Shown here: positions 6,888-32,044 of the stretch, piece by piece
Numbering within the stretch: position 1 is the stretch's first letter
Layout of the letters: the number at the start of each line of letters is the position of its first letter
Sequence record: SRR20825019_608
DNA length: 36,286 bases
Direction: 5' to 3' (one strand)
The notes under the pieces: generated by a model
Told to the model about the DNA's origin: nothing
The model's database searches: none
What the model saw: the letters and a program-made list of their open reading frames with translations, nothing else
Position numbers and translations under genes: made by a program

Positions 6888-7439
6888 CTGAAAGCCGATA
6901 AAACATACCGTCTAACGACCAAAGAATATAAAGTTCTTTTCGATGACCACCATGCCGCACTTTGTCTGTTCTGCAATCGCTATCTGAACGACCTTGAACT
7001 GGCAAAGGACGTGGTACAGGAAATCTTCATTAAGGTTTGGAACCAAAAAACAGTTTTCAAAAGTCAGGGAACGGTTAAATCGTACCTCTATACCGCGGTA
7101 AAGAACAGGTCCCTGGACATATTGAAGAGCAAGCACTATAAATCGAAATGCAAGCTATCGGTAGAGATGGTCCAGACTATGGAGACCGATTCTTTTTTTA
7201 CCAGCGAACTGGTCCTGCAAGAAACCGCCCGTTTGGTGGACATTGCGGTCGATACGTTGCCAACAAGGTGCAAGAAAATCATCAAGTTGAGCTTATTGGG
7301 CTATAAGAATGGGGAAATAGCCAATGAATTGGAGATTACCTTAAACACGGTAAAGGCCCAGAAAAAAATAGCCTATCGCAAACTTCGTTTCCAACTTCGG
7401 GAACATATGGCCGCTTTGGTGCATATCTTCTTACCATAA
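6888..7439 (+). CDS. RNA polymerase ECF sigma-70 factor (FecI-like, PUL-associated), probable CTG start
   Basis: The frame is open from 6867. Upstream of the GTG at 7011 it encodes YKVLFDDHHAALCLFCNRYLNDLELAKD, continuing into VVQEIFIKVW (region 2). Also SYLYTAVKNRSLD and region 4 LPTRCKKI...EIANELEITLNTVKAQKKIAYRKLR. Confidence 0.9.
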   Translation: MKADKTYRLTTKEYKVLFDDHHAALCLFCNRYLNDLELAKDVVQEIFIKVWNQKTVFKSQGTVKSYLYTAVKNRSLDILKSKHYKSKCKLSVEMVQTMETDSFFTSELVLQETARLVDIAVDTLPTRCKKIIKLSLLGYKNGEIANELEITLNTVKAQKKIAYRKLRFQLREHMAALVHIFLP

Positions 7440-7449
7440 AAAACATAAA

Positions 7450-7481
7450 TGTTTAACCCCAGTCATTAATTCTATCGTCTT
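7450..7481 (+). promoter_or_regulatory. Putative ECF-sigma promoter, copy 2, for fecR-susC-susD
   Basis: TGTTTAACCC-N15-TCGTCTT ending 30 nt upstream of the fecR ATG. Confidence 0.7.
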
Positions 7482-7511
7482 TGGATTAAAGACAGTAACT
7501 AAAAATCCTTT

Positions 7512-8705
7512 ATGTCAAGAGATTTCGGCAAAATAATGGAGCTGGCCCAAAAACTGGCCAGAACGATATTTCTAAGAGAGCGCATCGATAAGGTGGATTC
7601 CTCAAAGGATCTTGATGATGGGGAGCGGGAATATATAATGCAGAAACTGGGGGAGCCCAGTTATTGGCTAGAAAGAAGCCGCCTAAAAAAGGATATCGAC
7701 CACGCGCACCAGAAGGATTGGGAAAAGTTAAGGGCCCATATGGTAGGAGATAAAAAAATCAGGCACTTGAAGGCCGTAATTAAGGTCGCCGCGATATTTA
7801 TAGGTGTTGTTGGCCTCACTTACTTAGGTTTTAAGGAAAATTTCATCACTGATGAAAACGAGGCTCTTTATCAGCAAGAGTCGATTACCTTGGAGCTGGA
7901 GAATGGCGCAATAGAGAAATTGACAAGCTCGGGTAGTCGACCGTTCATGAACGGTCAAGGCGGCATTGTCGGGTATCAGAAGGACAATCAAATTGATTAT
8001 TCAGGTGCTGACCATCAGGATAATCAAGATCAGCCGCTACAATACCATAGATTGACTGTTCCCTATGGCAAAACGTTCCAGGTTGTGCTTTCGGATGGAA
8101 CCCGAGTCCATTTGAATGCCGGGACCATGTTGCGGTATCCAGTACGTTTTGTCGAAGGGCGGGATAGAGAGGTGTTTATGGAGGGGGAGGCACTCTTTGA
8201 TGTGAGCAAGGATGCGAGGCAGCCTTTTGTTGTACATGCGAATCAATTGGGAGTGAAAGTGTTGGGGACACAATTTGTCGTTTCATCCTATCCCGAGGAT
8301 ACATCTATAAATACGATTTTATTGGAGGGTTCTGTAGGACTCTATAGGGCTTCCCATAACATGGGCTCGGAACAATATACCGTATTGAAGCCAGGGTTCA
8401 TGGGATCTTGGAACAAAGCAATAGATGATATCTCCGTAAAGGAAGTAGATACGGATATCTATACTGCATGGACCAATGGCAGAGTGGTATTTAGCCATTT
8501 GAAATTCAACGACATCATCAAAAAATTGGCCCGATGTTATAATGTGTCCATTACCAACAACAATGCTCGTTTGGGCGAAGCAACCTTTACGGCCACATTT
8601 GATATAAAGGTCGAATCAATCAGGGATATCCTGGAGTCGTTCAAAAGGAACTATGGCTTCGATTATGATTATCGTATCGAAGACAATCAAGTGAATATAT
8701 ACTAA
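7512..8705 (+). CDS. FecR-family anti-sigma factor
   Basis: Single TM (KVAAIFIGVVGLTYLGF) and motifs VVLSDGTRVHLNAGT, REVFMEGEALFDV and VKVLGTQF. Sits between the ECF sigma and SusC genes. Confidence 0.95.
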   Translation: MSRDFGKIMELAQKLARTIFLRERIDKVDSSKDLDDGEREYIMQKLGEPSYWLERSRLKKDIDHAHQKDWEKLRAHMVGDKKIRHLKAVIKVAAIFIGVVGLTYLGFKENFITDENEALYQQESITLELENGAIEKLTSSGSRPFMNGQGGIVGYQKDNQIDYSGADHQDNQDQPLQYHRLTVPYGKTFQVVLSDGTRVHLNAGTMLRYPVRFVEGRDREVFMEGEALFDVSKDARQPFVVHANQLGVKVLGTQFVVSSYPEDTSINTILLEGSVGLYRASHNMGSEQYTVLKPGFMGSWNKAIDDISVKEVDTDIYTAWTNGRVVFSHLKFNDIIKKLARCYNVSITNNNARLGEATFTATFDIKVESIRDILESFKRNYGFDYDYRIEDNQVNIY

Positions 8706-8768
8706 CCCTATAAAAATGAAATGCCAATGAAGTGAACCTTCGACAACAAATAACCATCATCCCTGCAT

Positions 8769-8847
8769 AAAAAAATCGGAAAATGCGGACACATTCCCCG
8801 ATTGGATGTAAGGGTTGATCTAAACCAAATGTTAAATCATCTTAATA
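8769..8847 (-). ncRNA. Putative antisense sRNA in the fecR-susC spacer (DonS-like architecture)
   Basis: A minus-strand -7-like element TATCTTCG (8853-8860) overlaps the susC start. The minus-strand hairpin AAUCGGGGAAUG/CAUUUUCCGAUU plus U-tract (8803-8769) pairs fully only on the minus strand, via G-U pairs. The 5' end is approximate. Confidence 0.55.
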
Positions 8848-8859
8848 CAGAACGAAGAT

Positions 8860-11800
8860 ATGAAAATCCTTTCGATGTTAAGGGGCATGCCCCCCTTATA
8901 CTTGAAGTTAGACCTTAAAATGAAACTGACAGTCTATCTTTTTATCATTTCCCTTTTTCATGTTCAGGCCAATTCGTATGCCCAGAACACGAAAATATCC
9001 TTGCACATGGACAATGTAAGCGTTGAAAAAGTATTGCGGGAAATAGAGTCCAATACACAGTTTAAATTCTTGTACAACGATAGTGAAATTGAATATGCTA
9101 AAAAAGTTTCGATCAATGTAAAGAACAAGCGTATTTCCAGAATATTGGATGAGCTGTTCCTTGATACGCCCATAACTTACGAGGTCTTCAAGAAACAGAT
9201 TATACTTAAACGTTCCATGCCCACCGCGGATGAGGATCACCCCAAGAGGGACCGATCAAATCAAGATGACCAACAAACCGTTTCGGGTGCTGTAGAGGAT
9301 GTCGACGGAAACCCTTTGCCTGGGGTCAATGTCCTAGTAGATGGCACGACAAATGGTACCCAGACCGATTTTGATGGCAATTATTCCATTGAGGCGGTTG
9401 AAGGCGATATTCTTGTATTTTCTTATATGGGGATGATATCCCAACGCATAGAGGTGACCTCGGGTACAGTGGATGTGACCATGAAGGAAAACACCAGTCA
9501 ACTGGATGAGGTCGTTGTAGTAGGGTATGGGGTACAGAAGAAGGAGAATCTGACCGGTGCCGTTGGTGAGACCTCTAGTGTGGTCCTTGAAAACAGGGCG
9601 GTCCAGAATGCTGGACAGGCATTACAGGGTACCGTTGCCAACCTGAACGTGACAACGAATCCCGGTTCACCAGGAAGAATCGGTCAAGGATCCGCTTTTC
9701 AGATTAGAGGTCTCGGTGACATCAATGGTGGAGCTTCACCACTGGTACTTATAGATGGGGTACAGGGAGATCTGAACCTGCTCAATCCGGTGGACATAGA
9801 AAGTATTTCCGTACTAAAGGATGCTGCTTCCGCTGCAATTTATGGAGCACGTGCAACCTTTGGGGTTATTTTGGTGACCACTAAAAAAGGATCCAGAAGA
9901 GAGACCAAAGTAAGTATCAATAGTTCAGTATCGAACAATGCCCAGACCGTTTTTCCAAAAACAGTGAATTCTTTGCTTCATGCCCAAACGATGAACGCCG
10001 CTGCTGCCAATTCGGGAATGAACCCGATTTTTGGTCCAGATCAGATGGATAGGATACGACAGTATCTTTCCGATCCCGGAAGTGTTCCCACCACAGTTCC
10101 CGAGCCTGGAGACCCTTCACGGTGGAGTTATGCACTGGGAAATGCAAACGTGGATTACTTTGATGCATATTACAGTGATTCCATGGTAAGCCAAAAGCAT
10201 GATTTTGCGGTAAGTGGCGGAGGGGACAATACGGATTACCGTATCTCCTTGGGCTATCTGGATCAAGATGGGATTTTTGAAATGGGAAAAGACAACTACA
10301 AGAGATACAACCTTTTGGCCAATATCAATACAGATTTGAACGAAAAGCTCAAGTTTAGATTCCAGACCTTGTATAACCGAGGTTTTACCAATGAACCCTA
10401 TGATTATTCCGCACAAACAGGGGATTTGTTCCATATCGCCTACACAAGACCGCCACATTGGCCGTTGTACGACCCAAACGGATATCCTTTATGGACTTCC
10501 GAAATCCAATATTTTGAAGGTTCGAGACGTAAAACTAGGGAGGACGAATTAAAATTGATGGGGACATTGGAATTTGAGCCAGTAAAAGGTTGGAAAACCA
10601 CTGCGAGGTACTCGTATTCCAAATTGATGACGGAAGCCAATGCCCATCAGGCTATTTTACAAGCTCATGATACGGATGGGAATCCATATGATATTCAATC
10701 GGTCAACGCCGTTAGCAAGACCAATGCATCCAGGGACTATGAAAGTTTGGAATTGTTTTCTTCTTATGATAAAACCATCGGCGGGCATTACTTCAATATT
10801 TTAGTCGGGGGTCAGAGAGAGGATTATACCCGCAACGCAATATCGGGCTATGTACCGAACTTGGTTACGGATGCCATACCTTCCTTGAATACGGGTACGG
10901 GTATTCGACAAACATCCGATTCGATTGATGAATGGGTCAATATCGGATTTTTTGGCCGGGTCAACTATAATTATGAAGGGAAATATCTATTCGAGGCCAA
11001 TGCCAGATATGATGGGACCTCGAAATTTCCTGTGGGTAATCAATGGGGCTTTTTTCCGTCTGTATCCGCGGGCTGGAACATCGCCAAGGAAAACTTTTTT
11101 AAGGTAGAGGAGATCAACTCCTTGAAATTAAGGGCATCGTATGGGGAACTAGGAAATCAACAAGTTTCAAATTACCTTTTTTATGCACAAGTGCCCATTC
11201 GTACGAACCTAGGTTATATCATTGATGGGGAACGTCCCAACTATATTTCCGCTCCTGGATTGGTCAGCAATAATTTGACCTGGGCAACTGCGAACACATT
11301 GGATTTCGGTTTGGATGCAACTTTGTTGAAGAATCGTTTGAGCCTAAGTTTTGATTGGTTTGAAAGAAAGACAATGGATATGGTCGGGCCAGCGCAAGCT
11401 TTGCCTTCTATTTTAGGAGTGGGCGTCCCGGTAACCAACAATGCCGATATGGAAACCAAGGGATTTGAGTTGACCTTGGGCTGGAACGATGTCATCAATG
11501 AGGAGTTCAATTATTCGCTTCAACTCAACTTGTCGGACAACTTCTCCAAAGTGACCAGATACAATAGCCCGACCAACAATATCTGGGGTTATTACGAAGG
11601 CAAGGAAATAGGTGAGATTTGGGGATATACCACTGCCGGTATTATCCAGACCGATGAGCAGTTGAACAATATGGCCGACCAAACGACCTATATCTATGGG
11701 GGCAACTGGAATCTTGGGGATATCGAATACACGGATTTGAACGGTGATGGTGTCATATCACAAGGGGAGAATACCATTGAAGACCCTGGAGATCTGACAC

Positions 11801-12309
11801 GGATAGGAAATACCACCCCACGTTATGCCTTTGGATTTACAACCAGGTTCGAATGGAAAGGGTTCGATTTCAATATGTTTTGGCAAGGGATTGCCAAGAG
11901 GGAAGTGTGGCTCGGTGACATCCCGTTCTTTGGACTTACAGGTAGTTGGACGCAGCAAGTGTTCGAAACGACCATGGATTACTGGTCACCGGAAAATACG
12001 GACGCCTATTTTGCCAGACCCTATGCAACCGGGGAAATCAGCAAAAACCAACAACGGCAAACCAGATTTTTACAAGATGCTTCCTATGCACGGTTGAAAA
12101 ACCTTCAATTGGGCTACTCCCTCCCGAATTCGGTTCTGGACCCCTTGGGCTTTAGTAGGCTTAGGGTTTACGTGAGCGGGGAAAACTTATTGACCTTTTC
12201 TCCCATTGATGAGAATTTTGACCCGGAAAGATTACATGGAAACTATGGTCCGGGTAAATCATACCCGTTGTTTAGAACAATCACCATGGGTGTAAATATT
12301 GAATTTTAA
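8860..12309 (+). CDS. susC: SusC/RagA-family TonB-dependent transporter with N-terminal STN signalling domain
   Basis: STN domain, carboxypeptidase-like domain (GNPLPGVNV...GTQTDFDGNY), LDEVVVVGYG, plug motif DIESISVLKDAASAAIYGARATFGVILVTTKKG and C-terminal F. An alternative start at 8920 is possible. Confidence 0.97.
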   Translation: MKILSMLRGMPPLYLKLDLKMKLTVYLFIISLFHVQANSYAQNTKISLHMDNVSVEKVLREIESNTQFKFLYNDSEIEYAKKVSINVKNKRISRILDELFLDTPITYEVFKKQIILKRSMPTADEDHPKRDRSNQDDQQTVSGAVEDVDGNPLPGVNVLVDGTTNGTQTDFDGNYSIEAVEGDILVFSYMGMISQRIEVTSGTVDVTMKENTSQLDEVVVVGYGVQKKENLTGAVGETSSVVLENRAVQNAGQALQGTVANLNVTTNPGSPGRIGQGSAFQIRGLGDINGGASPLVLIDGVQGDLNLLNPVDIESISVLKDAASAAIYGARATFGVILVTTKKGSRRETKVSINSSVSNNAQTVFPKTVNSLLHAQTMNAAAANSGMNPIFGPDQMDRIRQYLSDPGSVPTTVPEPGDPSRWSYALGNANVDYFDAYYSDSMVSQKHDFAVSGGGDNTDYRISLGYLDQDGIFEMGKDNYKRYNLLANINTDLNEKLKFRFQTLYNRGFTNEPYDYSAQTGDLFHIAYTRPPHWPLYDPNGYPLWTSEIQYFEGSRRKTREDELKLMGTLEFEPVKGWKTTARYSYSKLMTEANAHQAILQAHDTDGNPYDIQSVNAVSKTNASRDYESLELFSSYDKTIGGHYFNILVGGQREDYTRNAISGYVPNLVTDAIPSLNTGTGIRQTSDSIDEWVNIGFFGRVNYNYEGKYLFEANARYDGTSKFPVGNQWGFFPSVSAGWNIAKENFFKVEEINSLKLRASYGELGNQQVSNYLFYAQVPIRTNLGYIIDGERPNYISAPGLVSNNLTWATANTLDFGLDATLLKNRLSLSFDWFERKTMDMVGPAQALPSILGVGVPVTNNADMETKGFELTLGWNDVINEEFNYSLQLNLSDNFSKVTRYNSPTNNIWGYYEGKEIGEIWGYTTAGIIQTDEQLNNMADQTTYIYGGNWNLGDIEYTDLNGDGVISQGENTIEDPGDLTRIGNTTPRYAFGFTTRFEWKGFDFNMFWQGIAKREVWLGDIPFFGLTGSWTQQVFETTMDYWSPENTDAYFARPYATGEISKNQQRQTRFLQDASYARLKNLQLGYSLPNSVLDPLGFSRLRVYVSGENLLTFSPIDENFDPERLHGNYGPGKSYPLFRTITMGVNIEF

Positions 12310-12311
12310 AA

Positions 12312-14084
12312 ATGGACATGATCATGAAAAAACATACACTAGTCATAATGATGGCCGTACTATTTGTTGCGATGCTATCATGCGAAGATGAATTGACCAC
12401 TATTCCGAAGGACACCATCACGGACCAAGGAATTACCTTCTCGGCCAATGAAATGGAGATGTACGCCAATCAGTTTTATACATCCTTGCCCGGAACCATG
12501 GCCGCATGGGCTTGGGAGTCGGATGCCGCATCGGATAATGATGTGCCCGCATCCTTTACATCGTATCCATTGGCATTCGGAACCCAGACGATTCCGGCAT
12601 CCGGAGGAGGCTGGAATTGGGGCAATATTAGAAATGTGAATTTTTTCCTGGATAATATCTCGGTATCCGAGGCTCCGCAATCGGCCCAGGACAAATATCT
12701 GGGGGAAATCCTGTTCTTCAAGGCCTTCTTTTATTTTGACCTGATGAAAAGGTTCGGTGACCTGCCATGGTTGGAAACTACACTGGATGTGGACTCCCCG
12801 GAACTTTTCGAAGGGCGTCTTTCAAGATCGGTAGTTGCCGATTCCATACTTTCTGTATTGGACCGTTCCATTGAGAAGCTCCCAGTAAAATCGCAAACCC
12901 AATATGGTCGTATACATAGGGATGTGGCGCTACTATTTAAAGCAAGGGTGGCACTTTATGAAGGAACTTGGGAAAAGTATCACGCAGGAACCCCTTTTGA
13001 GGGAGATGGAAGGGACGTTGATAGATTTTTCACCCAAGCAAGGGATGCTGCTGAAGAAGTTATGGAAAGTGGATATACGTTGTACAGCGATTTTTCACAT
13101 CCCGAAATTCCGGAAGGCTTTAGTTACTGGAGGTTGTTCTCAACTCCCAGTTCCGAAATTTCAAGTATTTCCGAAGTATTGCTGGCCAGAGAGTATAGTG
13201 CCGATTTGGATTTGATCTATTGGGGCCAGCAGATCAGGACCTCTGGTGGGCCAAACGGACATGGAATTTCAAAATCTTTGGTGGATGCCTATTTGTGTGA
13301 TGATGGGTTGCCGATTTCGGTAAGTCCAGAATATATGGGGGATGAAACACTGGAGAATGTTACGACCAATAGAGACCCTCGCTTGAAAATGACCGTATCC
13401 ACACCAGGAATACCGATTAAGATTTTCAATGGTGTGGTCGATACATACGAACTCCCTTTTCTAACATTGAACCCATGGCCCAATACTACGGGATATCAAA
13501 TATATAAGTGGCTCAGTCCTTTTATAGCAACTGAGGATGCATCTGGTAACAATACCTCCAATGCCGTTCCTTTGTTCAGGTATGCCGAAGCATTATTGAT
13601 TGCTGCTGAAGCACATGAAGAATTAGGGACTTGTACCCAGGCAGTGTTGGATAGGACCATCAATTTACTGAGGGACAGAGCAGGAGTTCCCCATCTCGAT
13701 GTGAGTGTTGGATTTTCCGACCCCAATTGGAATTTTCCCGGCTTGTCTCCCCTAATGAACGAGATCAGAAGGGAGAGAAGAGTGGAATTGGCCTTCGAAG
13801 GATTTAGAAGAGACGATCTGTACCGCTGGGCAGCCACGGATTTGATTCGAGCGCCCCGACTTGGGTCCAAATTGGAGCAATGGAGGGACCGATCTTTTGA
13901 GCCTGCATATGATGTGGATGAAGTATCTCAACGGATAGAAAATGTCGATGGCTACATTTCTCCTTTATTACAGACCTTCGGCGAAGGGGAAGTTGGCTTT
14001 GATCCTTCAAAAAATTACTTGGCACCATTGCCCGTAGATCAACTTACATTGAACCCAAACTTGGAGCAAAACCCAGGTTACTAG
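12312..14084 (+). CDS. susD: SusD/RagB-family outer-membrane glycan-binding lipoprotein
   Basis: Lipobox MLSC, and motifs YFDLMKRFGDLPW, RYAEALL, EIRRERRVELAFEGFRRDDLYRW and terminal NPNLEQNPGY. The start may be 12324. Confidence 0.97.
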   Translation: MDMIMKKHTLVIMMAVLFVAMLSCEDELTTIPKDTITDQGITFSANEMEMYANQFYTSLPGTMAAWAWESDAASDNDVPASFTSYPLAFGTQTIPASGGGWNWGNIRNVNFFLDNISVSEAPQSAQDKYLGEILFFKAFFYFDLMKRFGDLPWLETTLDVDSPELFEGRLSRSVVADSILSVLDRSIEKLPVKSQTQYGRIHRDVALLFKARVALYEGTWEKYHAGTPFEGDGRDVDRFFTQARDAAEEVMESGYTLYSDFSHPEIPEGFSYWRLFSTPSSEISSISEVLLAREYSADLDLIYWGQQIRTSGGPNGHGISKSLVDAYLCDDGLPISVSPEYMGDETLENVTTNRDPRLKMTVSTPGIPIKIFNGVVDTYELPFLTLNPWPNTTGYQIYKWLSPFIATEDASGNNTSNAVPLFRYAEALLIAAEAHEELGTCTQAVLDRTINLLRDRAGVPHLDVSVGFSDPNWNFPGLSPLMNEIRRERRVELAFEGFRRDDLYRWAATDLIRAPRLGSKLEQWRDRSFEPAYDVDEVSQRIENVDGYISPLLQTFGEGEVGFDPSKNYLAPLPVDQLTLNPNLEQNPGY

Positions 14085-14107
14085 CCATTACGCCTATTAA
14101 AAAGCGG

Positions 14108-14150
14108 TTTAGTTGTGGCCTTTCGATTTTCTGGAAGGCCACAAACTAAA
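14108..14150. terminator. Stem-loop after susD (terminator or mRNA-stabilising hairpin)
   Basis: Imperfect inverted repeat TTTAGTTGTGGCCTTTC...GAAGGCCACAAACTAAA, with no clean U-tract on the + strand. Confidence 0.55.
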
Positions 14151-14242
14151 TCATGGATTGTTTTATGGATATTCCCATCTTTTAGGGACTTCCAACAACC
14201 AGATTGTGTTCTGTAAACCTTCTATAACCATAACCTTACGTA

Positions 14243-16417: not shown

Positions 16418-16448
16418 GATAAAACAACCAAAGACAATAGGAATTACA

Positions 16449-23007: not shown

Positions 23008-23119
23008 TTATCATTTAAAACTCCTATTTGAAGAAATAAAGAAAGCGCCAATCTAATGCACGTTGCCATTCGAGAACTGATTGGATCAGGTGCATTCAAA
23101 TGGTCAAAAATCACGAAAA

Positions 23120-26100
23120 ATGAAAAGAATACAATACATTATATCATCGCTCTTTTTGCTCCTTGCCCTACAAGTTTCCACTGGACAGATCAACCGGACT
23201 TTGGAAACAAAAGTAGTGGATATATTGGCCCAGTTCCCTACCAAAGATCTAGAGCATTCGGACAGACTCATGCAAGAATTGGTGGGTTTGCAGGCCGAAG
23301 GGATCAATAAATTATGTGATCGAATCGTTCCTTCGGGAACAGGGGATGATACCCAAGCAAGGTATGCCGTCCACAGTTTGGCGGTTTATGCCGGTAAGCA
23401 CCGAGTAGGTACTGTGGAGAAAGCGCTGCTCAATGCTTTAGGGGAGGCGAAAAACAAAGAGATAAAAACGTTTTTTATCGATCGTTTGGCATTTTGCGGA
23501 ACCGATACCAGTGTAGCGTCATTGGGTAAATACCTTTTGGATGGAGAATTATATACGCCGGCACTGGCCACATTGACAGCCATAGGCACTCCGGGCGCCG
23601 GAGCAATCATTCATGCTACAACCAAATCGGTCGATGGTCTGCAGAAAGCGGCATTCCTCACAGTACTGGGACGTTTACGCTATGTTCCTGCTAAGGGATA
23701 TTTGGAAGGAGTTGTACCAGACCCTGCCTCGGATAGCATTGTCAAACAAAAAGCACTGATGGCATTGGCAGAAATAGCTGATCCCAAATCGGTTGATATG
23801 ATGTCCAGAGCTGTGGAGGGTGAGGAATATCGACTGGGTGATAGCCGTGCCATTATTGCATATATACATTTTGGAAACAGACTTATCGAGCAAGGAAATG
23901 CGTCCTTGGCCGAGCAAATAGCAACCTCATTATTGAAAAACTGTACTGCAGATGACCAGTTGCACTTCAGGGCTGCTGGAATCAACCTTCTGGTGTCCGC
24001 TATCGGTAAAAATGCAACAAAAACCCTTTTAAAAGAGGCGAAGCACCATGATGCGGCTTACACTGGAAGTGTGTTAAGGGCAGCAGGTCAATACCTTACG
24101 CAGACCTCGGTATCAAAATGGGTGAAACAGTACAGAAAAATGGAGGATGCCGGTAAAGTTCAACTTCTGGAAATGCTCAGGGAGCGTAAAGAGCCGGAGG
24201 TATTGGACAAATGCATTGAAAGAGCCATCGAATCCGATAACGAAACGTTAAGATTGGCTGGTATAAGGGCTTTGGATTTTCAAGAAAAGGACAAGGCGTT
24301 GCCATTGCTCTTTAGAATACTGGACGGGGCTACGTCCGATAGGATACTGTCTACCGTCCAAAATACGTTGATGAAAATAGTAAGTACCAAAGATGCTGCA
24401 CTGATTGCTGAAGAATTAGCACTTACCAATAACCGGAAGGCCAAGGCTGTCCTGGTACATGTGTTGGCCGAACGAAATGCCACAAATCAATTTGAGGTGA
24501 TTGCCAATTTGCTGGACAAAGCGGACGCTGGGCTAAAAAGGGCCATATATAGGGCAATTCCATCTGTTTCGACAGAAAAGGACCTAATGAGGTTGATGGA
24601 GCTGCTTTCTATGACAGAAGAGGAGGAGAACATCAATGCTGTGCAGCAAGCCCTTGTAAAAGTTCTTGGTAATGCAGGAAAGGAAAGTGCTCCGGCTATT
24701 TATAATGCCTTTGGAGACTTTGAAGATAAATCCAAATTGATTCCGGTCCTTCCCGCACTGAGAGGCCAAAAGGCATTGACCCTCATATCGGAACGCATGC
24801 AATTTGGTAATAACAAAGAGAAAAAAGCAGCCATCCTTGCACTCGCAGCATGGAAAGGCAACGAGAGTTTACCATATTTGTTCAAAGCCATAGTCAGTTC
24901 AAAAAAAGATATCAGGGAGTTGTCCTTTCGCCAATATTTGAAAAAAGTTGCTACTTCTGACCAACCCGATGATCAAAAACTATTATTGATACGAAAGTTG
25001 ATGCCGTACAGTAGCACCTTGCCAGAGAAAAAACAAGTGATAGTAGCAGCCCGATCGGCAAAGACATTCCTGTCTTTGGTTTTTGTATCGGATTATTTGG
25101 AAGATGCCGATCTAGCGGCTGTGGCATCCAATGCTGTGATTCAGATTGCCTTACCAACGCCCGGTGCCAACAATGGTCTACATGGTGAGGTGGTTCGGGA
25201 AGCCGTGTCAAAAAGTATGAAAAACTTAACGGGCCCAGATAGTCAATACCTAAGGATAGATGTACAAGAGTTTTTGGACAAAATGCCTAAAGAAAAAGGA
25301 TTTGTCCCCATTTTCAATGGCAAAGACCTTACCGGTTGGGAAGGTTTGGTGGAAAATCCCATCAAAAGAAGACAAATGTCCAAAACTGCTCTGAAACAAG
25401 CACAAGAAAAGGCCAATGCCCAAATGATGCAGGACTGGTTTGTAAAAGATGGGGTCATAGGCTTTAAGGGTGAAGGCTACAATAATATTTGTACCATAAA
25501 GGATTATGGTGATTTTGAGATGCTAGTGGATTGGAAAATTACGCACGGCGGGGATAGTGGAATATACCTTAGGGGAACCCCTCAAGTGCAAATTTGGGAC
25601 ACAGCACGTACCGACGTGGGAGCAGAAGTTGGCAGCGGGGGGTTGTACAATAATCAAAACAATACAAGTAAGCCCTTGGTGGTGGCCGATAATCCCATAA
25701 ACGAATGGAATACATTTAGAATCAAAATGATCGGGGAACGTGTTACGGTCTATTTGAACGGAAAGTTGGTCACCGACAACGTGGTTTTGGAAAATTATTG
25801 GGACAGGGACAACACCATTTTTGTGAAAGAGGCCATAGAACTCCAAGCCCACGGAGAGGACTTGGGCTTTAGGAATGTTTATGTCAGGGAAATAGCTTCA
25901 GGCAATGAGCTTCTAAGCCCTGAAGAACAAAGGGAAGGTTTTCAATCCCTTTTCAACGGAAAGGATCTTGACCATTGGATTGGAAACAAGACCGATTATT
26001 TGGTCCAAGACAATGAGTTGATGGTTCAGCCTAAACAGGGCGGTCATGGAAATTTATATACTGCCAATGCATATACGGATTTTATTTTTCGATTCGATTT

Positions 26101-26512
26101 TAAGTTGACCCCGGGAGCCAACAATGGGCTTGGTATCCATGCACCGTTGGAAGGTGATGCGGCCTATGTTGGGAAAGAGTTACAAATTCTGGACAATACG
26201 GCCGCCATCTATGCCGATTTAAAACCGTATCAGTATCATGGGTCGGTATATGGAATCGCAGCTGCTAAAAGAGGGTTTTTAAACCCTGTTGGAGAATGGA
26301 ATTCCCAAGAAGTCACTGTAAAGGGAAATCATGTCAAAATTATGCTCAACAATCATGTTATTCTTGATACCGACATCAAAGAAGCCTCGAAAAACGGGGC
26401 TGCGGACGGGCAGCACCATCCCGGGCTCCAGAAAAATACTGGACACATTGGGTTTTTGGGCCATGGTTCTGTACTCTGGTTCCGAAATATCAGGATCAAA
26501 GATTTAAAATAG
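23120..26512 (+). CDS. Secreted HEAT-repeat protein with two C-terminal DUF1080 (3-keto-disaccharide hydrolase-like) domains
   Basis: Signal peptide and about 700 aa of Leu/Ala-rich helical repeats. Two domains start GFVPIFNGKDLTGW and GFQSLFNGKDLDHW and end LQAHG...FRNVYVRE and FLGHG...FRNIRIKDL. Confidence 0.9.
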   Translation: MKRIQYIISSLFLLLALQVSTGQINRTLETKVVDILAQFPTKDLEHSDRLMQELVGLQAEGINKLCDRIVPSGTGDDTQARYAVHSLAVYAGKHRVGTVEKALLNALGEAKNKEIKTFFIDRLAFCGTDTSVASLGKYLLDGELYTPALATLTAIGTPGAGAIIHATTKSVDGLQKAAFLTVLGRLRYVPAKGYLEGVVPDPASDSIVKQKALMALAEIADPKSVDMMSRAVEGEEYRLGDSRAIIAYIHFGNRLIEQGNASLAEQIATSLLKNCTADDQLHFRAAGINLLVSAIGKNATKTLLKEAKHHDAAYTGSVLRAAGQYLTQTSVSKWVKQYRKMEDAGKVQLLEMLRERKEPEVLDKCIERAIESDNETLRLAGIRALDFQEKDKALPLLFRILDGATSDRILSTVQNTLMKIVSTKDAALIAEELALTNNRKAKAVLVHVLAERNATNQFEVIANLLDKADAGLKRAIYRAIPSVSTEKDLMRLMELLSMTEEEENINAVQQALVKVLGNAGKESAPAIYNAFGDFEDKSKLIPVLPALRGQKALTLISERMQFGNNKEKKAAILALAAWKGNESLPYLFKAIVSSKKDIRELSFRQYLKKVATSDQPDDQKLLLIRKLMPYSSTLPEKKQVIVAARSAKTFLSLVFVSDYLEDADLAAVASNAVIQIALPTPGANNGLHGEVVREAVSKSMKNLTGPDSQYLRIDVQEFLDKMPKEKGFVPIFNGKDLTGWEGLVENPIKRRQMSKTALKQAQEKANAQMMQDWFVKDGVIGFKGEGYNNICTIKDYGDFEMLVDWKITHGGDSGIYLRGTPQVQIWDTARTDVGAEVGSGGLYNNQNNTSKPLVVADNPINEWNTFRIKMIGERVTVYLNGKLVTDNVVLENYWDRDNTIFVKEAIELQAHGEDLGFRNVYVREIASGNELLSPEEQREGFQSLFNGKDLDHWIGNKTDYLVQDNELMVQPKQGGHGNLYTANAYTDFIFRFDFKLTPGANNGLGIHAPLEGDAAYVGKELQILDNTAAIYADLKPYQYHGSVYGIAAAKRGFLNPVGEWNSQEVTVKGNHVKIMLNNHVILDTDIKEASKNGAADGQHHPGLQKNTGHIGFLGHGSVLWFRNIRIKDLK

Positions 26513-26514
26513 AG

Positions 26515-27315
26515 ATGGATTATAGACGATACAATTTTATGATTAAACATATCGGAATGATGTGCTTATGTTTGGTTTTCAGTGGCCTGAATCCAATTCA
26601 GGCCCAAGTGAGACCTAAAGTGAGTGTCATGTCATTTAACATACATGCCGGTTACGGAACCGATGGAACTTTTAATTTGTTGGGAATCGGAAACCAAATC
26701 AAGGAAGCCCAACCTGATATAGTCTGTTTACAAGAGGTGGATTACAGGACGCAAAGGTCACAAGGCAAAGATGTGACTTTGGAATTGGCCAGTATTACCG
26801 GGTTTCATTCTTTTTTTGGAAAGGCAATTTTTTTTGACGGGGGGGAGTATGGTTTGGCCATTTTGTCAAAGCATCCCATTTGTGAGGTCAAAGTCCATAC
26901 CTTGCCCAATAGCGGAAATGCCGAGCCCAGGATAGCCCTGGAATGCATTGTTCAAGTTCCGGGTTTGGGTAAACTTAGGGTCGTGAACGTACATCTGGAC
27001 CATTCGAATATGGAATTGAATCTGTCCCAAATACGATATATGAACAAAAAATTTGCGGATAAGAGGCCCACTATAATGGCTGGCGACTTCAATCAAGAAA
27101 TGAAAGGCAAAGGCATGCGACAGTTGGGAAAGGATTGGAATTTTTCAATGGATGCAAACGCACTTACCTATCCAACAGATAAGCCCGACACAAAAATTGA
27201 TTATATCATGGCTTATCCCCGGAACAAATGGAAAATAAAAAATGCTCGGGTTTATAATGATTCTAGAGTCTCGGACCATTTGCCCATTATAGCTGACCTT
27301 CTTTATCTAGAGTGA
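26515..27315 (+). CDS. Secreted endonuclease/exonuclease/phosphatase (EEP) family protein
   Basis: MSFNIH, PDIVCLQEVD, YGLAILSK, NVHLD, AGDFN, IDYI and SDHLPI. Signal peptide; the start may be 26539. Confidence 0.93.
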   Translation: MDYRRYNFMIKHIGMMCLCLVFSGLNPIQAQVRPKVSVMSFNIHAGYGTDGTFNLLGIGNQIKEAQPDIVCLQEVDYRTQRSQGKDVTLELASITGFHSFFGKAIFFDGGEYGLAILSKHPICEVKVHTLPNSGNAEPRIALECIVQVPGLGKLRVVNVHLDHSNMELNLSQIRYMNKKFADKRPTIMAGDFNQEMKGKGMRQLGKDWNFSMDANALTYPTDKPDTKIDYIMAYPRNKWKIKNARVYNDSRVSDHLPIIADLLYLE

Positions 27316-27362
27316 ATACCATGGATTATAGGTTGAATTATTGGAGTTAGTTGATGAAGATG

Positions 27363-27387
27363 GGCAGGGTTTGCCCCTGCCTTTCTT
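27363..27387 (+). terminator. Hairpin, probable terminator, after the EEP gene
   Basis: GGCAGGG-TTTGC-CCCTGCC followed by TTTCTT. Confidence 0.6.
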
Positions 27388-27437
27388 AACCTAAAACAGG
27401 GAAATTCACTTTTCCTGCACTAAAACATGAATGAAAT

Positions 27438-29249
27438 ATGATAACACTACAATGGTTGGACTATGCCATTATCGTAACCTTTTTTGCCGTCACCCTAGGC
27501 ATTGGAATTTATGTATCCAAGAGTTCGGGCAGGAGCAGTTCAGACTTCTTTTTGTCTGGAAGGTCCATGCCCTGGTGGCTTTTGGGCATTTCCATGGTGG
27601 CGACCACTTTTTCTACTGATACGCCCAATTTGGTGACCGATATTGTCCGGACTAATGGGGTGGCCGGTAACTGGGTTTGGTGGGCCTTTCTTTTAACAGG
27701 TCTTTTGACTGTTTTTATATATGCAAGATTGTGGCGTAGGTCCAATGTCAATACGGACCTTGAGTTTTATGAACTTAGGTATGGAGGTGCACCCGCCAGA
27801 TTTTTAAGGAGGTTTAGAGCCATTTATCTCGGGGTGGTTTTCAATGTGATTACAATGTCGGCGGTGACTCTTGCCGCTATCAAGATCGGGGGCATTATGT
27901 TAGGTCTTGAACCATGGCAGACAGTTCTCATTGCAGGTATGGTAACGGTGATTTTTAGCGCTATCGGAGGATTCAAGGGTGTTGTGTACACGGATTTCAT
28001 CCTTTTTTTCGTGGCCATGGGGGGAACCATTGGAGCCGCCTATTATTTAGTAAATATCCCCGAGGTAGGGGGATTGGAAACGCTGTTTTCCAATCCGAAT
28101 GTCAAACATAAATTGAGCATGGTACCGGATTTGGACAATACCGATGCTTTGATTACTTTGATTATCATTCCCTTGGCGGTACAGTGGTGGAGCTCATGGT
28201 ACCCTGGTTCAGAACCCGGTGGGGGCGGTTATATCGCACAAAGGATGCTCTCTGCCAAAAATGCGAAGCATGCCATCGCGGCAACGTTCTTCTTCAATAT
28301 CATGCACTATGCCGTTAGGCCATGGCCTTGGATATTGGTGGCGTTGGCCTCTATTGTTGTGTTTCCCGACCTAGAGAGCCTCCAACAGGCCTTTCCGATC
28401 ATATCCGACGACAAACTTGGGCACGACCTGGCCTTTTCGGCCATGTTGACCAAATTACCCTCTGGCCTTATGGGCCTTGTACTCACTTCACTGGTCGCGG
28501 CCTATATGTCTACTATATCCACACAGCTCAATTGGGGTTCTTCGTATATTGTGTATGATTTCTATAAAGAAAGGGTGGATCCCCATGCATCCGAGAAACG
28601 CTTGGTAATGGTCGGTAGGTTGTCCACGGTGGGCTTGATGGTGCTGAGTGCCGCACTGGCCCTTTTGCTCCAAAACGCCCTTCAGCTCTTTGAGATATTG
28701 CTGGTATTTGGGGCGGGGACCGGTCTGATATTCATTCTAAGGTGGTTTTGGTGGCGAATCAACGCGTGGAGCGAGATTACGGCAATGTTCGCTTCCGGTA
28801 TACTTTCGCTGGTGCTGAAACTAACTCCTTTGGGAGATTATCTGTTCGGTGTTGATCATGGGGCGCTACCGAGTTGGTCGGAGTACCCTATGGTGGTCTT
28901 GACCACAACAGTCCTATGGTTGACAGCGACTTATGTCTCACCTCCTGAGTCCCGGGAGGTACTTTATGGGTTCTGTAAGAAGATAGGGCCCGGAGGTCCT
29001 GGATGGGAAACAATTGTCCGAAAGGGTAGGACGGAAGGGATCGATTTGGACATCGGTAAACAATGGAGTGTTCCCAGTGGTATATTGGCCATGCTCTTGG
29101 GCACAATACTAATTTACTCCTGCCTATTTGCAGTGGGACATTGGATTTATGGTGAGTGGCTGCTAGCTGGTTCCTTGACCGTCCTGGCGGTTGGTTCGGG
29201 GGTAAGTTTGATGCTTACCTGGAAAAGAATAGAAAAGATTATCAAATAA
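27438..29249 (+). CDS. Sodium:solute symporter family protein (probable amino-sugar importer)
   Basis: DFFLSGRSMPWWLLGISMVATTFSTDT, YIAQRMLSAK, AAYMSTISTQLNWG and many TM segments. Directly upstream of nagB and the GlcNAc kinase. Confidence 0.93.
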   Translation: MITLQWLDYAIIVTFFAVTLGIGIYVSKSSGRSSSDFFLSGRSMPWWLLGISMVATTFSTDTPNLVTDIVRTNGVAGNWVWWAFLLTGLLTVFIYARLWRRSNVNTDLEFYELRYGGAPARFLRRFRAIYLGVVFNVITMSAVTLAAIKIGGIMLGLEPWQTVLIAGMVTVIFSAIGGFKGVVYTDFILFFVAMGGTIGAAYYLVNIPEVGGLETLFSNPNVKHKLSMVPDLDNTDALITLIIIPLAVQWWSSWYPGSEPGGGGYIAQRMLSAKNAKHAIAATFFFNIMHYAVRPWPWILVALASIVVFPDLESLQQAFPIISDDKLGHDLAFSAMLTKLPSGLMGLVLTSLVAAYMSTISTQLNWGSSYIVYDFYKERVDPHASEKRLVMVGRLSTVGLMVLSAALALLLQNALQLFEILLVFGAGTGLIFILRWFWWRINAWSEITAMFASGILSLVLKLTPLGDYLFGVDHGALPSWSEYPMVVLTTTVLWLTATYVSPPESREVLYGFCKKIGPGGPGWETIVRKGRTEGIDLDIGKQWSVPSGILAMLLGTILIYSCLFAVGHWIYGEWLLAGSLTVLAVGSGVSLMLTWKRIEKIIK

Positions 29250-29278
29250 ACTTTATATACAATTTAAAAACATATATC

Positions 29279-31204
29279 ATGAAAGCAGCGCTACAATCAA
29301 TACGGTATGAACCAGCCGGAAGGTTCGAAGCCACCAGATATGAAAAAGTCCATAATGTTATCTTTCAAGATTCCAAGCAAGGGTCGTTGCAGGTGGCCAG
29401 GGAAATCGCAAGTTTGATACGTGAAAGGGCTGACAAGGGACAAAAATGTGTTCTTGGGTTGGCCACGGGATCCTCCCCGATCAGGGTCTACGAGGAATTG
29501 GTGCGTATGCATCGGGAAGAGGGACTCAGTTTTAAGAACGTGGTCACCTTTAATCTTGATGAATATCATCCAATGGATCGTAGCAATATCCAGAGCTACC
29601 ATTATTTTATGCACCAGCACTTGTTCGACCATGTGGACATTGCTGCCGAAAACGTACATATACCGGATGGCAGGATCTCCTTACAGGATGTACAGGAATA
29701 TTGTAAGAAATATGAGGGTATGATCGAACAAGCAGGTGGCTTGGACTTCCAATTGTTGGGCATTGGCAGGACCGGACATATCGGTTTCAATGAACCGGGC
29801 TCGCATTATAACTCCGCCACTAGGGAAATTACATTGGATTATGTTACCCGCATTGATGCTTCGTCTGCTTTCAAGGGACTGGAGAACGTCCCCCGTAAGG
29901 CCATAACCATGGGCATCGGAACCATTAAAAGGGCAAAGCGCATCGTATTGTTGGCATGGGGTCAGAACAAGGCCCCGGTCATCCGTGAGACCATTGAGGG
30001 CGATATCAGTTCGGAAGTTCCTGCCACTTATTTACAGGAACATGCCAACACCACTTTTGTCCTTGATAAAGAGGCAGCTTCACTATTAACACGGATAGAT
30101 ACCCCTTGGTTGGTACAGAGCTGTGATTGGACCCATGACCTGACGCACAAGGCGGTGGTCTGGTTGAGCCAGAAGAGGGGCAAGCCTATTTTACAATTGA
30201 CCGATAAGGACTATAACGATATGGGAATGTCCGACCTTTTGAGTTCGGAGCAATCTTCCTATGAAATCAACATAAAGATTTTTAACCGTTTACAACATAC
30301 CATCACAGGCTGGCCCGGAGGGAAGCCCGATGCCGACGATACCAATCGTCCCGAACGTGCAGAACCTAGAGCCAAAAGGGTCATTATCTTCTCACCGCAT
30401 CCTGACGATGATGTTATATCGATGGGAGGGACCTTCGATAGGTTGGTCACCCAGGGTCATGAGGTCCATGTTGTATACCAAACATCGGGCAATATTGCGG
30501 TTGCTGATCACGAGGCTATCAAAGCGGCTGAAGTGGCCAATAGCATAGGGCCGGCCGAAATATTTGATACGGTGATACGGGAGATTCGGGAAAAAACCGA
30601 AGGTGATTTCGATTCTAAGCTCGTACGAAGGCTCAAAGGAAATATAAGAAGGGCGGAAAGTATCGCGGCCACGCGGTATCTAGGCATACCGGATGACCAG
30701 GTACATTTTTTGGACCTGCCCTTTTATGAAACAGGATCCATAAAGAAGAAACCGTTGGCAGAAGAGGATATCGTCATAATGAACAATATCATTCAGAAAG
30801 TGAAGCCCCACCAGATTTATGCCGCTGGTGACTTGGCCGATCCACATGGTACCCATAGGGTATGTCTGGAGGCGCTGTTCGCCTCCTTGGAGTCCCTTAA
30901 ATCGGAAGAATACATGAAGAACTGCTGGGTTTGGCTCTACCGAGGGGCATGGCACGAGTGGGAGACCCATGAGATTGAAATGGCAGTGCCCATGAGCCCT
31001 GCACAGGTTCTTAGAAAGCGAAAGGCCATATTCTTTCATCAGACCCAAAAGGACGGGGTGATGTTCCAAGGAGAAGATTTACGCGAGTTTTGGGTAAGGG
31101 CGGAGGACCGGAACAAGGAAACGGCAGAAAAATACCAATCCTTGGGACTTGCCAGTTATGCGGCCATGGAGGCTTTCGTCAGATATGATTTTTTTAAAGC
31201 GTAA
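29279..31204 (+). CDS. nagB: Glucosamine-6-phosphate deaminase fused to a C-terminal PIG-L/LmbE-like deacetylase domain
   Basis: LGLATGSSP, TFNLDEY and LGIGRTGHIGFNEPG, then FSPHPDDDVISMGG and DPHGTH. ATG at 29279. Confidence 0.95.
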   Translation: MKAALQSIRYEPAGRFEATRYEKVHNVIFQDSKQGSLQVAREIASLIRERADKGQKCVLGLATGSSPIRVYEELVRMHREEGLSFKNVVTFNLDEYHPMDRSNIQSYHYFMHQHLFDHVDIAAENVHIPDGRISLQDVQEYCKKYEGMIEQAGGLDFQLLGIGRTGHIGFNEPGSHYNSATREITLDYVTRIDASSAFKGLENVPRKAITMGIGTIKRAKRIVLLAWGQNKAPVIRETIEGDISSEVPATYLQEHANTTFVLDKEAASLLTRIDTPWLVQSCDWTHDLTHKAVVWLSQKRGKPILQLTDKDYNDMGMSDLLSSEQSSYEINIKIFNRLQHTITGWPGGKPDADDTNRPERAEPRAKRVIIFSPHPDDDVISMGGTFDRLVTQGHEVHVVYQTSGNIAVADHEAIKAAEVANSIGPAEIFDTVIREIREKTEGDFDSKLVRRLKGNIRRAESIAATRYLGIPDDQVHFLDLPFYETGSIKKKPLAEEDIVIMNNIIQKVKPHQIYAAGDLADPHGTHRVCLEALFASLESLKSEEYMKNCWVWLYRGAWHEWETHEIEMAVPMSPAQVLRKRKAIFFHQTQKDGVMFQGEDLREFWVRAEDRNKETAEKYQSLGLASYAAMEAFVRYDFFKA

Positions 31205-31213
31205 AATTTTGAT

Positions 31214-32044
31214 ATGGTATTGATTGCTGATAGCGGTTCGACCAAATGTGATTGGCAAGTTTATGATACGACTGGCTCCATGATGTTTCAAAAAAGGACA
31301 ATCGGAATCAATCCAATTATTCATTCAGACGGTGATATTTGCTCAGTTTTACAAGAGTTGAAAAATGATATGCCCAATGAGATTTCACAAATTGAATTTT
31401 ACTGTGCCGGTGGTAAAAATGCGGAGTCAAAGCAAAGATTGATTCAAATTTTTGGTCAATTTTTTAAACAGGCTCAGGTGAAGATAGAGGATGATCTGGG
31501 AATGGCCGTGAAATGTACCAAAGGTTTACCAGGAGTGGTATGTATTTTGGGTACTGGAGCAAACAGTTGTTTTTTTGACGGAGCTAAGGTTCATAAACGG
31601 TTGCCGGACCTAGGGTATCAGATAATGGATCTGGGCAGCGGGAACTACTATGGGAGGGAATTGTTACGGAGTTATGCCTATGGCTATATGCCTGTAGATC
31701 TAAGAAAAAGCTTTGAGAAAAGGTATGATCTTGAGGACAGGGGCATTCTGAGGGAACTCTATCACGGGGAGAACCCAAGTTCCTATCTTGCCAGTTTTGC
31801 CAAGTTCATGATAGAGAACAACAAACATCCGTTTATGCTCTCTTTGATCAGGGAAGGGGTGGAAAAGGTCTTTACCCATGTTTTGGGACCCTACCAGTTT
31901 GAAATGAAACGGCATCCGATCTACTTTGTGGGTTCCATTGCTTTTTATCTACAAAACGCTATCCAGAACAAAGCAGAAGCGCATAATTTTAATAGGATTC
32001 ACTTTATTGGTAAACCACTGGAATATTTATCAGTGGTATCATAG
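31214..32044 (+). CDS. N-acetylglucosamine kinase-like protein (BadF/BadG/BcrA/BcrD ATPase family)
   Basis: LIADSGSTKCDW, CILGTGANSC, LGYQIMDLGSGNYYG and FVGSIA. Follows nagB. Confidence 0.88.
   Translation: MVLIADSGSTKCDWQVYDTTGSMMFQKRTIGINPIIHSDGDICSVLQELKNDMPNEISQIEFYCAGGKNAESKQRLIQIFGQFFKQAQVKIEDDLGMAVKCTKGLPGVVCILGTGANSCFFDGAKVHKRLPDLGYQIMDLGSGNYYGRELLRSYAYGYMPVDLRKSFEKRYDLEDRGILRELYHGENPSSYLASFAKFMIENNKHPFMLSLIREGVEKVFTHVLGPYQFEMKRHPIYFVGSIAFYLQNAIQNKAEAHNFNRIHFIGKPLEYLSVVS

Follow-up and report, generated by a model that had tools for sequence, protein, structure and literature searches.

Glycosides can be degraded in the bacterial periplasm through 3-keto intermediates, and this chemistry is the closest described parallel to part of a 25-kb run of genes that we examine here, at positions 6888 to 32044 of sequence record SRR20825019_608, a stretch of 36,286 nucleotides referred to below as the window. 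According to Nasseri et al. (10.1101/2024.03.25.586180), a Gfo enzyme with a twin-arginine translocation (Tat) signal oxidises the substrate, a xylose-isomerase-like TIM barrel eliminates beta-linked substrates, and a DUF1080 protein performs alpha-elimination and hydration, the Gfo and DUF1080 steps being periplasmic; a beta-thio-linked N-acetylglucosamine (GlcNAc) substrate also scored positive in the screen. Background on DUF1080 and on periplasmic 3-ketoglycoside routes is given in PMC9007349. In the gene clusters BT2156-BT2160 of Bacteroides thetaiotaomicron and AL1-AL5 of Alistipes, as in the window, a Tat-exported Gfo/Idh/MocA dehydrogenase and a secreted DUF1080 protein are encoded next to each other, and a membrane-associated regulator precedes them. 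The window differs from them in several respects: it is without the xylose-isomerase-like TIM-barrel lyase and the second, cytoplasmic dehydrogenase, its dehydrogenase has a PF19051 C-terminal domain, its DUF1080 domain is doubled and fused to approximately 720 residues of HEAT repeats, and its regulator is LamG/SARP-like and not of the DUF6377 type.

Two further systems resemble other parts of the run. The nanLET-type loci of Bacteroides contain an N-acylglucosamine 2-epimerase (AGE) and an importer of the major facilitator superfamily (MFS), followed by an N-acetyl-sugar kinase and the deaminase NagB; the series AGE, GlcNAc kinase and NagB constitutes the lower sialic acid route of the Bacteroides type. 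The window has the same components, but neither a NanL/NanA lyase nor a sialidase; its MFS protein is of the sugar-porter family, and the conserved neighbour of its AGE is an exported protein of 724 residues, which we call U724. The murTKQ genes of Tannerella forsythia place a sodium-symporter-type importer before a BadF-type kinase, MurK, which is the best solved relative of the window kinase. In the window NagB stands between the sodium:solute symporter (SSF) and the kinase (the two are directly adjacent in two related genomes, G022 and G025), and there is no MurQ in the locus.

The initial annotation of this DNA had read the whole run as one hydrolase-free pathway, in which a glycoside of an N-acetylhexosamine (HexNAc) is oxidised at C3, DUF1080 domains carry out elimination and hydration, the C2 configuration is scrambled, and the products pass through AGE, the kinase and NagB. 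Its gene content was confirmed by scans with Pfam (21 window open reading frames, ORFs) and NCBIfam (16 of those 21), which assigned 14 co-oriented ORFs, all on the plus strand, between 6888 and 32044; one gene, encoding a protein of 778 residues (19249-21585), had been omitted from its list. The amino-sugar theme holds as well, with a true-clade AGE, a NagB over the equivalog cut-off and a kinase of the MurK/GlcNAc-kinase type, and the scans agree that no glycoside hydrolase (GH), polysaccharide lyase (PL), sulfatase, sialidase or DHDPS/NanA model is matched. By contrast, a hydrolase-free locus coupling 3-keto chemistry to C2 epimerisation is not supported, because AGE goes with U724, the dehydrogenase/DUF1080 pair is autonomous elsewhere, and a candidate degrading enzyme with a six-hairpin barrel is present. 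We favour, at about an even chance, the view that the region brings four units together in a lineage-specific mosaic, present in some Flagellimonas/Muricauda genomes as an accessory island, and that it does not encode one dedicated pathway. The modularity of the locus is well supported by comparison across genomes. Unit A (6888-19092) would be a classical core of a polysaccharide utilization locus (PUL); unit B (19249-21585) would consist of a regulator that sits in the membrane and has a sensor domain of its own; in unit C (21694-27315), an NAD-type sugar dehydrogenase exported by Tat would form a conserved periplasmic pair with a HEAT/2xDUF1080 protein, followed by a protein of the endonuclease/exonuclease/phosphatase (EEP) family; and unit D (27438-32044) would import and process an amino sugar.

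The neighbourhoods of U724 outside the island lineage indicate which genes belong together. A scan of species-representative genomes gave 80 loci, which were searched with the 14 window proteins and six further neighbour families. Of these, 7 belong to the Flagellimonas/Muricauda island lineage; one of the 73 others was dropped (U724 score <=550 bits), which left 72 for the counts that follow. AGE was found near U724 in 20/72 loci, in 17 of them within 3.5 kb and on the same strand, and a sugar-porter MFS in 22/72 (20 within 3.5 kb, same strand); both were present in 13/72, and one or the other in 29/72. A strong match (>=300 bits) to the Gfo dehydrogenase or to the HEAT-DUF1080 protein occurred in 0/72. 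When only the 41 loci of at least 20 kb are considered, AGE is found in 14, MFS in 15 and a strong Gfo in none. By these counts, AGE and MFS are partners of U724 and not of the dehydrogenase/DUF1080 pair to which the initial annotation had coupled AGE. The U724-AGE-MFS trio recurs in records from Bacteroidota, Planctomycetota and Verrucomicrobiota. The PUL character recurs too: SusC and SusD were each near U724 in 14/72 loci, two Seonamhaeicola loci (L014, L016) read sigma/FecR/SusC/SusD/U724/AGE up to the contig end, and a Membranihabitans locus (L022) reads FecR/SusC/SusD/FAD oxidoreductase/GDSL/U724/AGE/MFS. A Pfam scan of three neighbours in L022, which did not extend to L014 and L016, detected no GH among them. 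Genes of units C and D were rare near U724, with EEP in 4/72, NagB in 2/72, SSF in 1/72 and the island-type kinase in 0/72. The other neighbours counted were a PF12831 FAD oxidoreductase (9/72), DUF4434 (7/72), a GDSL esterase (6/72), GH20 (4/72) and GH92 (4/72). The PF12831 FAD-dependent oxidoreductase lies beside U724 in several Bacteroidota loci (L019, L021, L022, L028 and L033), with the GDSL esterase also in the first three. These neighbours suggest that the substrate is O-acetylated and that one more redox step, as yet uncharacterised, takes place.

The dehydrogenase and the HEAT-DUF1080 protein show the converse behaviour. The dehydrogenase gene (21694-23007, plus strand, likely start ATG 21739) matches PF19051 with 482.6 bits and PF01408 with 71.7 bits, and its translation has the twin-arginine motif SRRGFVKK. 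It precedes the gene for a secreted protein of 1143 residues (23081-26512, plus strand, likely start ATG 23120) with HEAT repeats (HEAT_2, 61.5 bits) and two C-terminal DUF1080 (3keto-disac_hyd) domains (PF06439, 271 bits, 2 stretches). Homologues of the latter match at E<=1e-60 in 11/401 Bacteroidia genomes. Besides G001, a close relative that carries the island at 99-100% protein identity, six of these genomes have long homologues; five of the homologues are full-length (37-41% identity), and the sixth is 33% identical. In 6/6 the gene directly preceding the homologue, in the same orientation, encodes a PF19051 dehydrogenase (661-689 bits), and in 6/6 no homologue of the window U724, AGE, NagB, kinase or SSF was found within the 15-20 kb examined. 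The pair's neighbours in these genomes are peptidases, glycerol genes, enolase, two-component systems and similar genes; SusC/D together with a PF01261 TIM barrel are found beside it only in L107 (1/6). On this comparative evidence the pair seems to be an autonomous unit elsewhere. By analogy with BT2158/BT2157, it would most likely oxidise a sugar or glycoside at C3 and process the 3-keto product. The secreted EEP protein that ends unit C is encoded at 26515-27315 on the plus strand (PF03372, 79.4 bits).

Unit D begins with the SSF (27438-29249, plus strand; PF00474, 115 bits), probably an amino-sugar importer, and continues with a long NagB fused to a PIG-L/LmbE-type de-N-acetylase domain (29156-31204, plus strand, likely start near 29279), which scores 1050 bits with PRK02122 (cut-off 384), 69 bits with PF02585, and 254.6 with TIGR00502 (cut-off 236.9). 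The last gene encodes a BadF/ASKHA-type N-acetyl-sugar kinase of 276 residues (31214-32044, plus strand), recognised from PDB matches and without a Pfam match at E up to 1. The SSF would import an amino sugar, the MurK-like kinase would phosphorylate it, and the long NagB would de-acetylate and deaminate the product to fructose-6-phosphate. In G001 an 80%-identical long NagB and a close SSF paralog are found again in another locus (L115; G001:C11:404000-423999), together with SusC/D, a true GH109 (Glyco_hydro_109_C), DUF4832/DUF4874, a phosphohexomutase, a nucleotidyltransferase, a GHMP kinase and a LacI regulator; this is probably a GalNAc-type PUL that reuses the SSF-NagB cassette. A separate locus of the same genome holds DeoR, MurQ, NagB, AmpG-like and GH3 genes. 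The second SSF-NagB pair in the GH109/GHMP-kinase locus and the separate MurQ/NagB locus of G001 therefore mark the import-deaminase cassette as a reusable amino-sugar module. Within the genus, a second kinase copy (38-41% identical) is present in 25/25 genomes, and kinases of the island type (66-99% identity) are confined to the 5 island genomes; a housekeeping NagB copy (56-58% identical) is found in nearly all 25, each genome having at least one NagB match. Of the island NagB, G001 and G011 alone have an intact copy; G003 retains a remnant, and G022 and G025 lack it.

U724 is present in 5/25 Flagellimonas/Muricauda genomes, and these five are also the ones with the island kinase and with a full-length HEAT-DUF1080 protein; the whole region is therefore an accessory island. 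Its arrangement in the window is not due to chance, since the gene order is syntenic in the Flagellimonas/Muricauda loci L007-L011; U724 itself is 100% identical in a Flagellimonas aurea record (L006). The island varies in content. Downstream of HEAT-DUF1080, G001 and G011 have EEP, SSF, NagB and kinase, G003 has EEP, SSF, a NagB remnant and kinase, and G022 and G025 have SSF and kinase. A reduced island in F. olearia (L017) consists of sigma/FecR/SusC/SusD/U724/Gfo/HEAT-DUF1080/kinase, with AGE, MFS, the LamG regulator, EEP, SSF and NagB absent from it. EEP is present in 3/5 variants with the stretch examined (G001, G003, G011); the window query did not find it in G022 or F. olearia, and in G025 its position is only partly covered. 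The island variants can thus lose AGE/MFS, EEP, SSF or NagB while keeping the Gfo/HEAT-DUF1080 pair. The co-occurrence of sub-modules, which the initial annotation had proposed to measure, fails for the coupled pathway outside this one genus.

U724 (14243-16417, plus strand) is an exported protein of an uncharacterised family, without a Pfam or NCBIfam assignment. A model built with the family alignment A1 reached a predicted local distance difference test score (pLDDT) of 90.1 and a predicted template modelling score of 0.90, against a pLDDT of only 36 for single-sequence AF2. It comprises an N-terminal hydrophobic helix, an alpha/beta domain (residues ~28-230) and an (alpha/alpha)6 barrel (~245-700), so that the unknown protein described at first as barrel-like does have a barrel, of this specific kind and with an additional domain in front of it. 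In the family alignment, Asp, Glu, Trp and Arg are invariant at many positions, among them those of the motif YGDDNAR. The barrel aligns to six-hairpin carbohydrate enzymes, the top rows being tied within ~1 Z unit: 7qsj, MmpH (Z 25.5, 315 residues, r.m.s.d. 3.4), 4v1r, GH76 (25.4, 332, 3.7), 1vd5, GH88 (25.1, 332, 3.2) and 4z4j, a cellobiose 2-epimerase (24.8, 342, 3.7), with mannose and sulfoquinovose isomerases, the polysaccharide lyase 5no8 and terpene cyclases close behind. Foldseek placed AGE-superfamily epimerases on top (E 4e-7); a comparison with the AGE family by hhalign gave a probability of 6%, which does not establish descent from a common ancestor. Compared with the six-hairpin enzymes (GH76, GH88/GH105, AGE/cellobiose 2-epimerase/YihS), identity is 8-14%, and U724 has the additional N-terminal alpha/beta domain, for which Pfam yielded no match at E up to 1. 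A single-sequence phmmer search of the PDB found no match to U724, a 62-member family profile gave only chance matches among PDB sequences (thymidine kinase, E 0.85), and neither the GH and PL models of Pfam and NCBIfam nor their solved members matched in sequence; the likeness is at the level of fold only. That the 724-residue protein might turn out to be a known GH accounting for the locus, as the initial annotation had allowed, is not borne out by these models: U724 would share its fold with many glycosidases without matching a known GH in sequence.

The U724 family is sizeable, with 327 matches among 8000 candidates scored in a 90%-clustered database and, in a 50%-clustered library, 1753 representatives at E<=1e-3 and 576 at E<=1e-30. 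Natural fusions join it to GH20 beta-N-acetylhexosaminidase (P0126-P0128) and to DUF4434 (P0123-P0126; P0112), and further relatives are fused to F5/8 type C and LamG/GH43 domains. In P0127, residues 8-722 of U724 align to residues 1-712, and GH20 follows at 888-1359. The proteins P0126-P0128 are of metagenomic and Phycisphaerae origin, and P0126 also has DUF4434 and an F5/8 type C domain. An equation of DUF4434 with GH156 sialidase was considered and dropped: the DUF4434 neighbour in L019 has no PDB sequence match, and the accessible portions of the GH156 papers are silent on DUF4434. Because U724 is exported, is encoded directly after SusC/SusD, has a glycosidase-like fold and invariant acidic and aromatic residues, and recurs in PUL-type settings, we regard it with moderate confidence as the candidate glycan-cleaving or glycan-modifying enzyme of the PUL. 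Its position and its fused relatives make the description of the locus as hydrolase-free doubtful.

AGE and MFS complete the corresponding part of unit A. The AGE (16449-17666, plus strand), a cytoplasmic protein, matches PF07221 with 171 bits and NF052547 with 340 bits, below the equivalog cut-off of 600. Its best PDB matches are 2gz6 (E 1.1e-88, 301 bits), 6f04 (E 2.1e-87, 297 bits) and 1fp3 (E 1.1e-55), against ~1e-19 or weaker (<=74 bits) for cellobiose 2-epimerases, which, as judged by these scores, makes it a member of the true GlcNAc 2-epimerase clade. No AGE-family gene other than this one was found in G001. The MFS transporter (17644-19092, plus strand) is an XylE-like sugar porter (PF00083, 375 bits; TIGR00879, 363.6 bits, cut-off 237.8). 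In the proposed mechanism, the extracytoplasmic function (ECF) sigma/anti-sigma pair and the SusC with its STN domain would sense the glycan, SusC/SusD would import oligosaccharides, the exported U724 would cleave or modify the glycan, the MFS would import the released monosaccharide, and AGE would interconvert N-acetylmannosamine (ManNAc) and GlcNAc. The imported sugar may be ManNAc, given the need for AGE. It is tempting to speculate further that U724 founds a new exported (alpha/alpha)6 enzyme family that frees ManNAc or another HexNAc from bacterial or algal glycans, and that it defines a sialic-acid-independent ManNAc route (U724, sugar-porter MFS, AGE, kinase, NagB) across Bacteroidota, Planctomycetota and Verrucomicrobiota, joined in Flagellimonas to the dehydrogenase/HEAT-DUF1080 pair; we put this forward tentatively and rate it as unlikely. 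A search of PMC and bioRxiv, supplements not covered, found no literature on the U724 family, on PF19051 or on an N-acetylmannosaminidase. The U724 family and the Gfo/HEAT-2xDUF1080 pair are two sizeable protein groups without experimental function. For U724, its partners (AGE, the sugar porter, the GH20 fusions) lead to a concrete hypothesis that is ready for assay, and if it proved to be a glycosidase or lyase, it would represent a new CAZyme family and explain PULs that seemingly lack a degrading enzyme. The pair, for its part, may extend oxidative glycoside cleavage beyond gut Bacteroides.

Several points weigh against the mosaic reading and the roles it assigns. SusCD/U724, Gfo, HEAT-DUF1080 and the kinase are found together in all six island variants, including that of F. 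olearia. This persistence is the strongest point for a functional link between U724 and the pair, and is compatible with a real functional link between units A and C; on the other side, six variants within a single lineage amount to one evolutionary event. Only 41/72 of the outside loci are at least 20 kb long and many are short contigs, so the counts are lower bounds, and absences are to be read in the same way. The fold of U724 does not show hydrolysis, because isomerases/epimerases, terpene cyclases and thioester-domain proteins have it too and the scores of the fold comparison lie within 1 Z unit of one another. In the family, 12/62 members weakly match the C-terminal model of glucuronyl C5-epimerase (best E 0.001), a lead and not a finding, and 1/62 weakly matches GH127 (Pfam at E up to 1); U724 could be an epimerase or lyase that acts on polymers. 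That ManNAc is the sugar taken up is weakly indicated, by the presence of AGE. Finally, every catalytic step, those of U724, the dehydrogenase and the DUF1080 domains included, is one that we infer from gene identities, fold, localisation signals and co-occurrence.

One alternative to the mosaic is peptidoglycan scavenging, in which the SSF and kinase would be MurT- and MurK-like proteins handling N-acetylmuramic acid (MurNAc), U724 would act on GlcNAc-MurNAc strands, and MurQ would be provided from elsewhere in the genome. The kinase, first annotated as a GlcNAc kinase, is indeed of the N-acetyl-sugar kinase type, and its best solved match is T. forsythia MurK: it aligns end to end with 8oqw (131 bits, E 5.2e-37, residues 1-272) and scores 129 bits with 8ow9, the paralog K1058 (8oqk/8ow7) being lower at 98-99 bits. 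A difference of 131 vs 99 bits would not allow MurK to be told from GlcNAc-kinase specificity, and PMC10465942, which assigns the MurK PDB codes, likewise states that no conclusion could be drawn on the structural basis of GlcNAc specificity. For the importer, the introduction of PMC5790795 places Tf_MurT in the sodium symporter superfamily, but the discussion of the same paper names MurT a major facilitator. A close SSF homologue (735 bits) in L013 lies beside a ROK + MurQ-like SIS protein, GH20 and U724, and G001 has a MurQ over the cut-off (316 bits). However, G001 already has the separate MurQ/NagB/AmpG-like/GH3 locus, and AGE, named as the commonest partner of U724, would be without a role in MurNAc catabolism. 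We consider the scavenging explanation improbable.

The single hydrolase-free pathway is, in our assessment, quite improbable. It draws on the dehydrogenase, whose nearest solved relatives are 8tdf (E 1.1e-24) and 8tdh (E 5e-23), with the EKP and GDMxxH (D-x-x-x-H) motifs aligned; we take both to be structures from the 3-keto-glycoside study of the Withers laboratory (Nasseri et al.). Two DUF1080 domains are present, periplasmic Gfo and DUF1080 chemistry is described in that study, in whose screen a beta-thio-GlcNAc substrate scored positive, and the pair accompanies U724 and the kinase in every island variant. Against it, no PF01261 TIM-barrel lyase of the BT2156/AL1 type is matched by Pfam among the 21 window ORFs, and neither a second Gfo/Idh/MocA dehydrogenase (BT2159/AL4) nor DUF6377 was found in the window by Pfam/NCBIfam, a single ORF being of the Gfo/Idh/MocA type. 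The dehydrogenase matches the family model NF058561 (BT_2158_fam) at E 1.5e-45 with 155.7 bits, against a cut-off of 750, over positions 1-286 of the 487 in the profile. Among solved structures, the DUF1080 domains have their nearest relatives in the uncharacterised structural-genomics proteins 4jqt and 3hbk, and are only remotely like 8tda/8tde and 8v31 (E 3.7e-6 to 5e-6), which are presumably of the BT2157/AL2 type. As described above, the pair lives without the window's amino-sugar homologues in 6/6 other genomes and without AGE in F. olearia, AGE/MFS track U724 in loci where the strong pair is never seen, and the exported six-hairpin-barrel protein means that the locus is not demonstrably hydrolase-free. 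More generally, failure to recognise a GH in a PUL does not count as evidence for a mechanism without hydrolases. A sialic or nonulosonic acid locus, with U724 as a new sialidase or sialate-processing enzyme and AGE handling ManNAc derived from Neu5Ac, would fit the AGE-kinase-NagB series, the GDSL esterases near U724 and an MFS_1 and DHDPS ORF near U724 in L031, but is very improbable, since no sialidase or NanA model is matched in the window, the MFS is a XylE-like sugar porter that sialate:H+ symporter models match only at E 6e-21 and 6e-19, and no nanA match in G001 exceeds the cut-off (best 112 and 108 bits vs 382, on other contigs), so that a sialate-lyase source of ManNAc is not evident.

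The remaining genes of units A and B are as follows. The ECF-type sigma-70 factor (6888-7439, plus strand) has Sigma70_r2/r4 domains and scores 102 bits with TIGR02985, below the 126-bit cut-off. Its first canonical start is GTG 7011, and the N-terminus encoded upstream of it is conserved: the stretch LKLKA[D/N]KTYRLT.KEYK[V/I]LFD (region 6867-7011) is found in six loci (L006, L007, L009, L010, L011, L017), and no ATG, GTG or TTG occurs inside it in the window or the related loci. Translation of the sigma factor probably starts at a non-canonical codon, such as CTG 6888. The FecR-type anti-sigma factor (7512-8705, plus strand; PF04773, 57 bits; PF16344, 55 bits) is followed by the SusC/RagA TonB-dependent transporter (8860-12309, plus strand; TIGR04056, 895 bits, cut-off 368) with an N-terminal STN signalling domain (41.9 bits), and by the SusD-family outer-membrane glycan-binding lipoprotein (12312-14084, plus strand; PF07980, 160 bits). 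With 2 nt between their genes, SusC and SusD form the adjacent pair that defines a PUL. The LamG-domain protein of unit B (19249-21585, plus strand) has Laminin_G_3 at residues 328-469 (88.9 bits) and one membrane helix, the hydrophobic stretch FLGYIVSLLVLFGAGYIVF; its C-terminal 261 and N-terminal 334 residues are without a Pfam match at E up to 1. Language-model features of the C-terminus resemble BTAD/Trans_reg_C (scores 0.93-0.95), which is only a lead. The protein is probably a one-component membrane regulator with a SARP-like cytoplasmic part.

A scan for sigma-70 promoters and terminators over 13000-32800 gave 31 and 14 sites, against 38.5 and 19.6 expected from shuffles, and is uninformative on operon structure. 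Two marine oligo-dT RNA libraries from one study (X17, X18) contained 9 and 11 short contig pieces matching the locus; those listed are 151-268 nt long and scattered over SusD, U724, MFS, the regulator, HEAT, EEP, SSF and the kinase, and they show presence only, neither co-induction nor transcript structure. A third library, X16, is probably DNA. On the left, Pfam identifies a type IX secretion system cargo gene, PorP and a histidine kinase/LuxR pair. An ORF of 167 residues (6174-6677) without a family match, probably not a gene, lies in the 730 bp that separate the gene of the LuxR response regulator from that of the sigma factor. The right flank holds, by Pfam, an N-acetylmuramoyl-L-alanine amidase (32335-32979, minus strand) and a TraG P-loop/DUF3875 conjugation gene (33769-36195, plus strand), and the island thus abuts a conjugative element. 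In F. olearia the right flank consists instead of a PP2C phosphatase and a Ser/Thr kinase.

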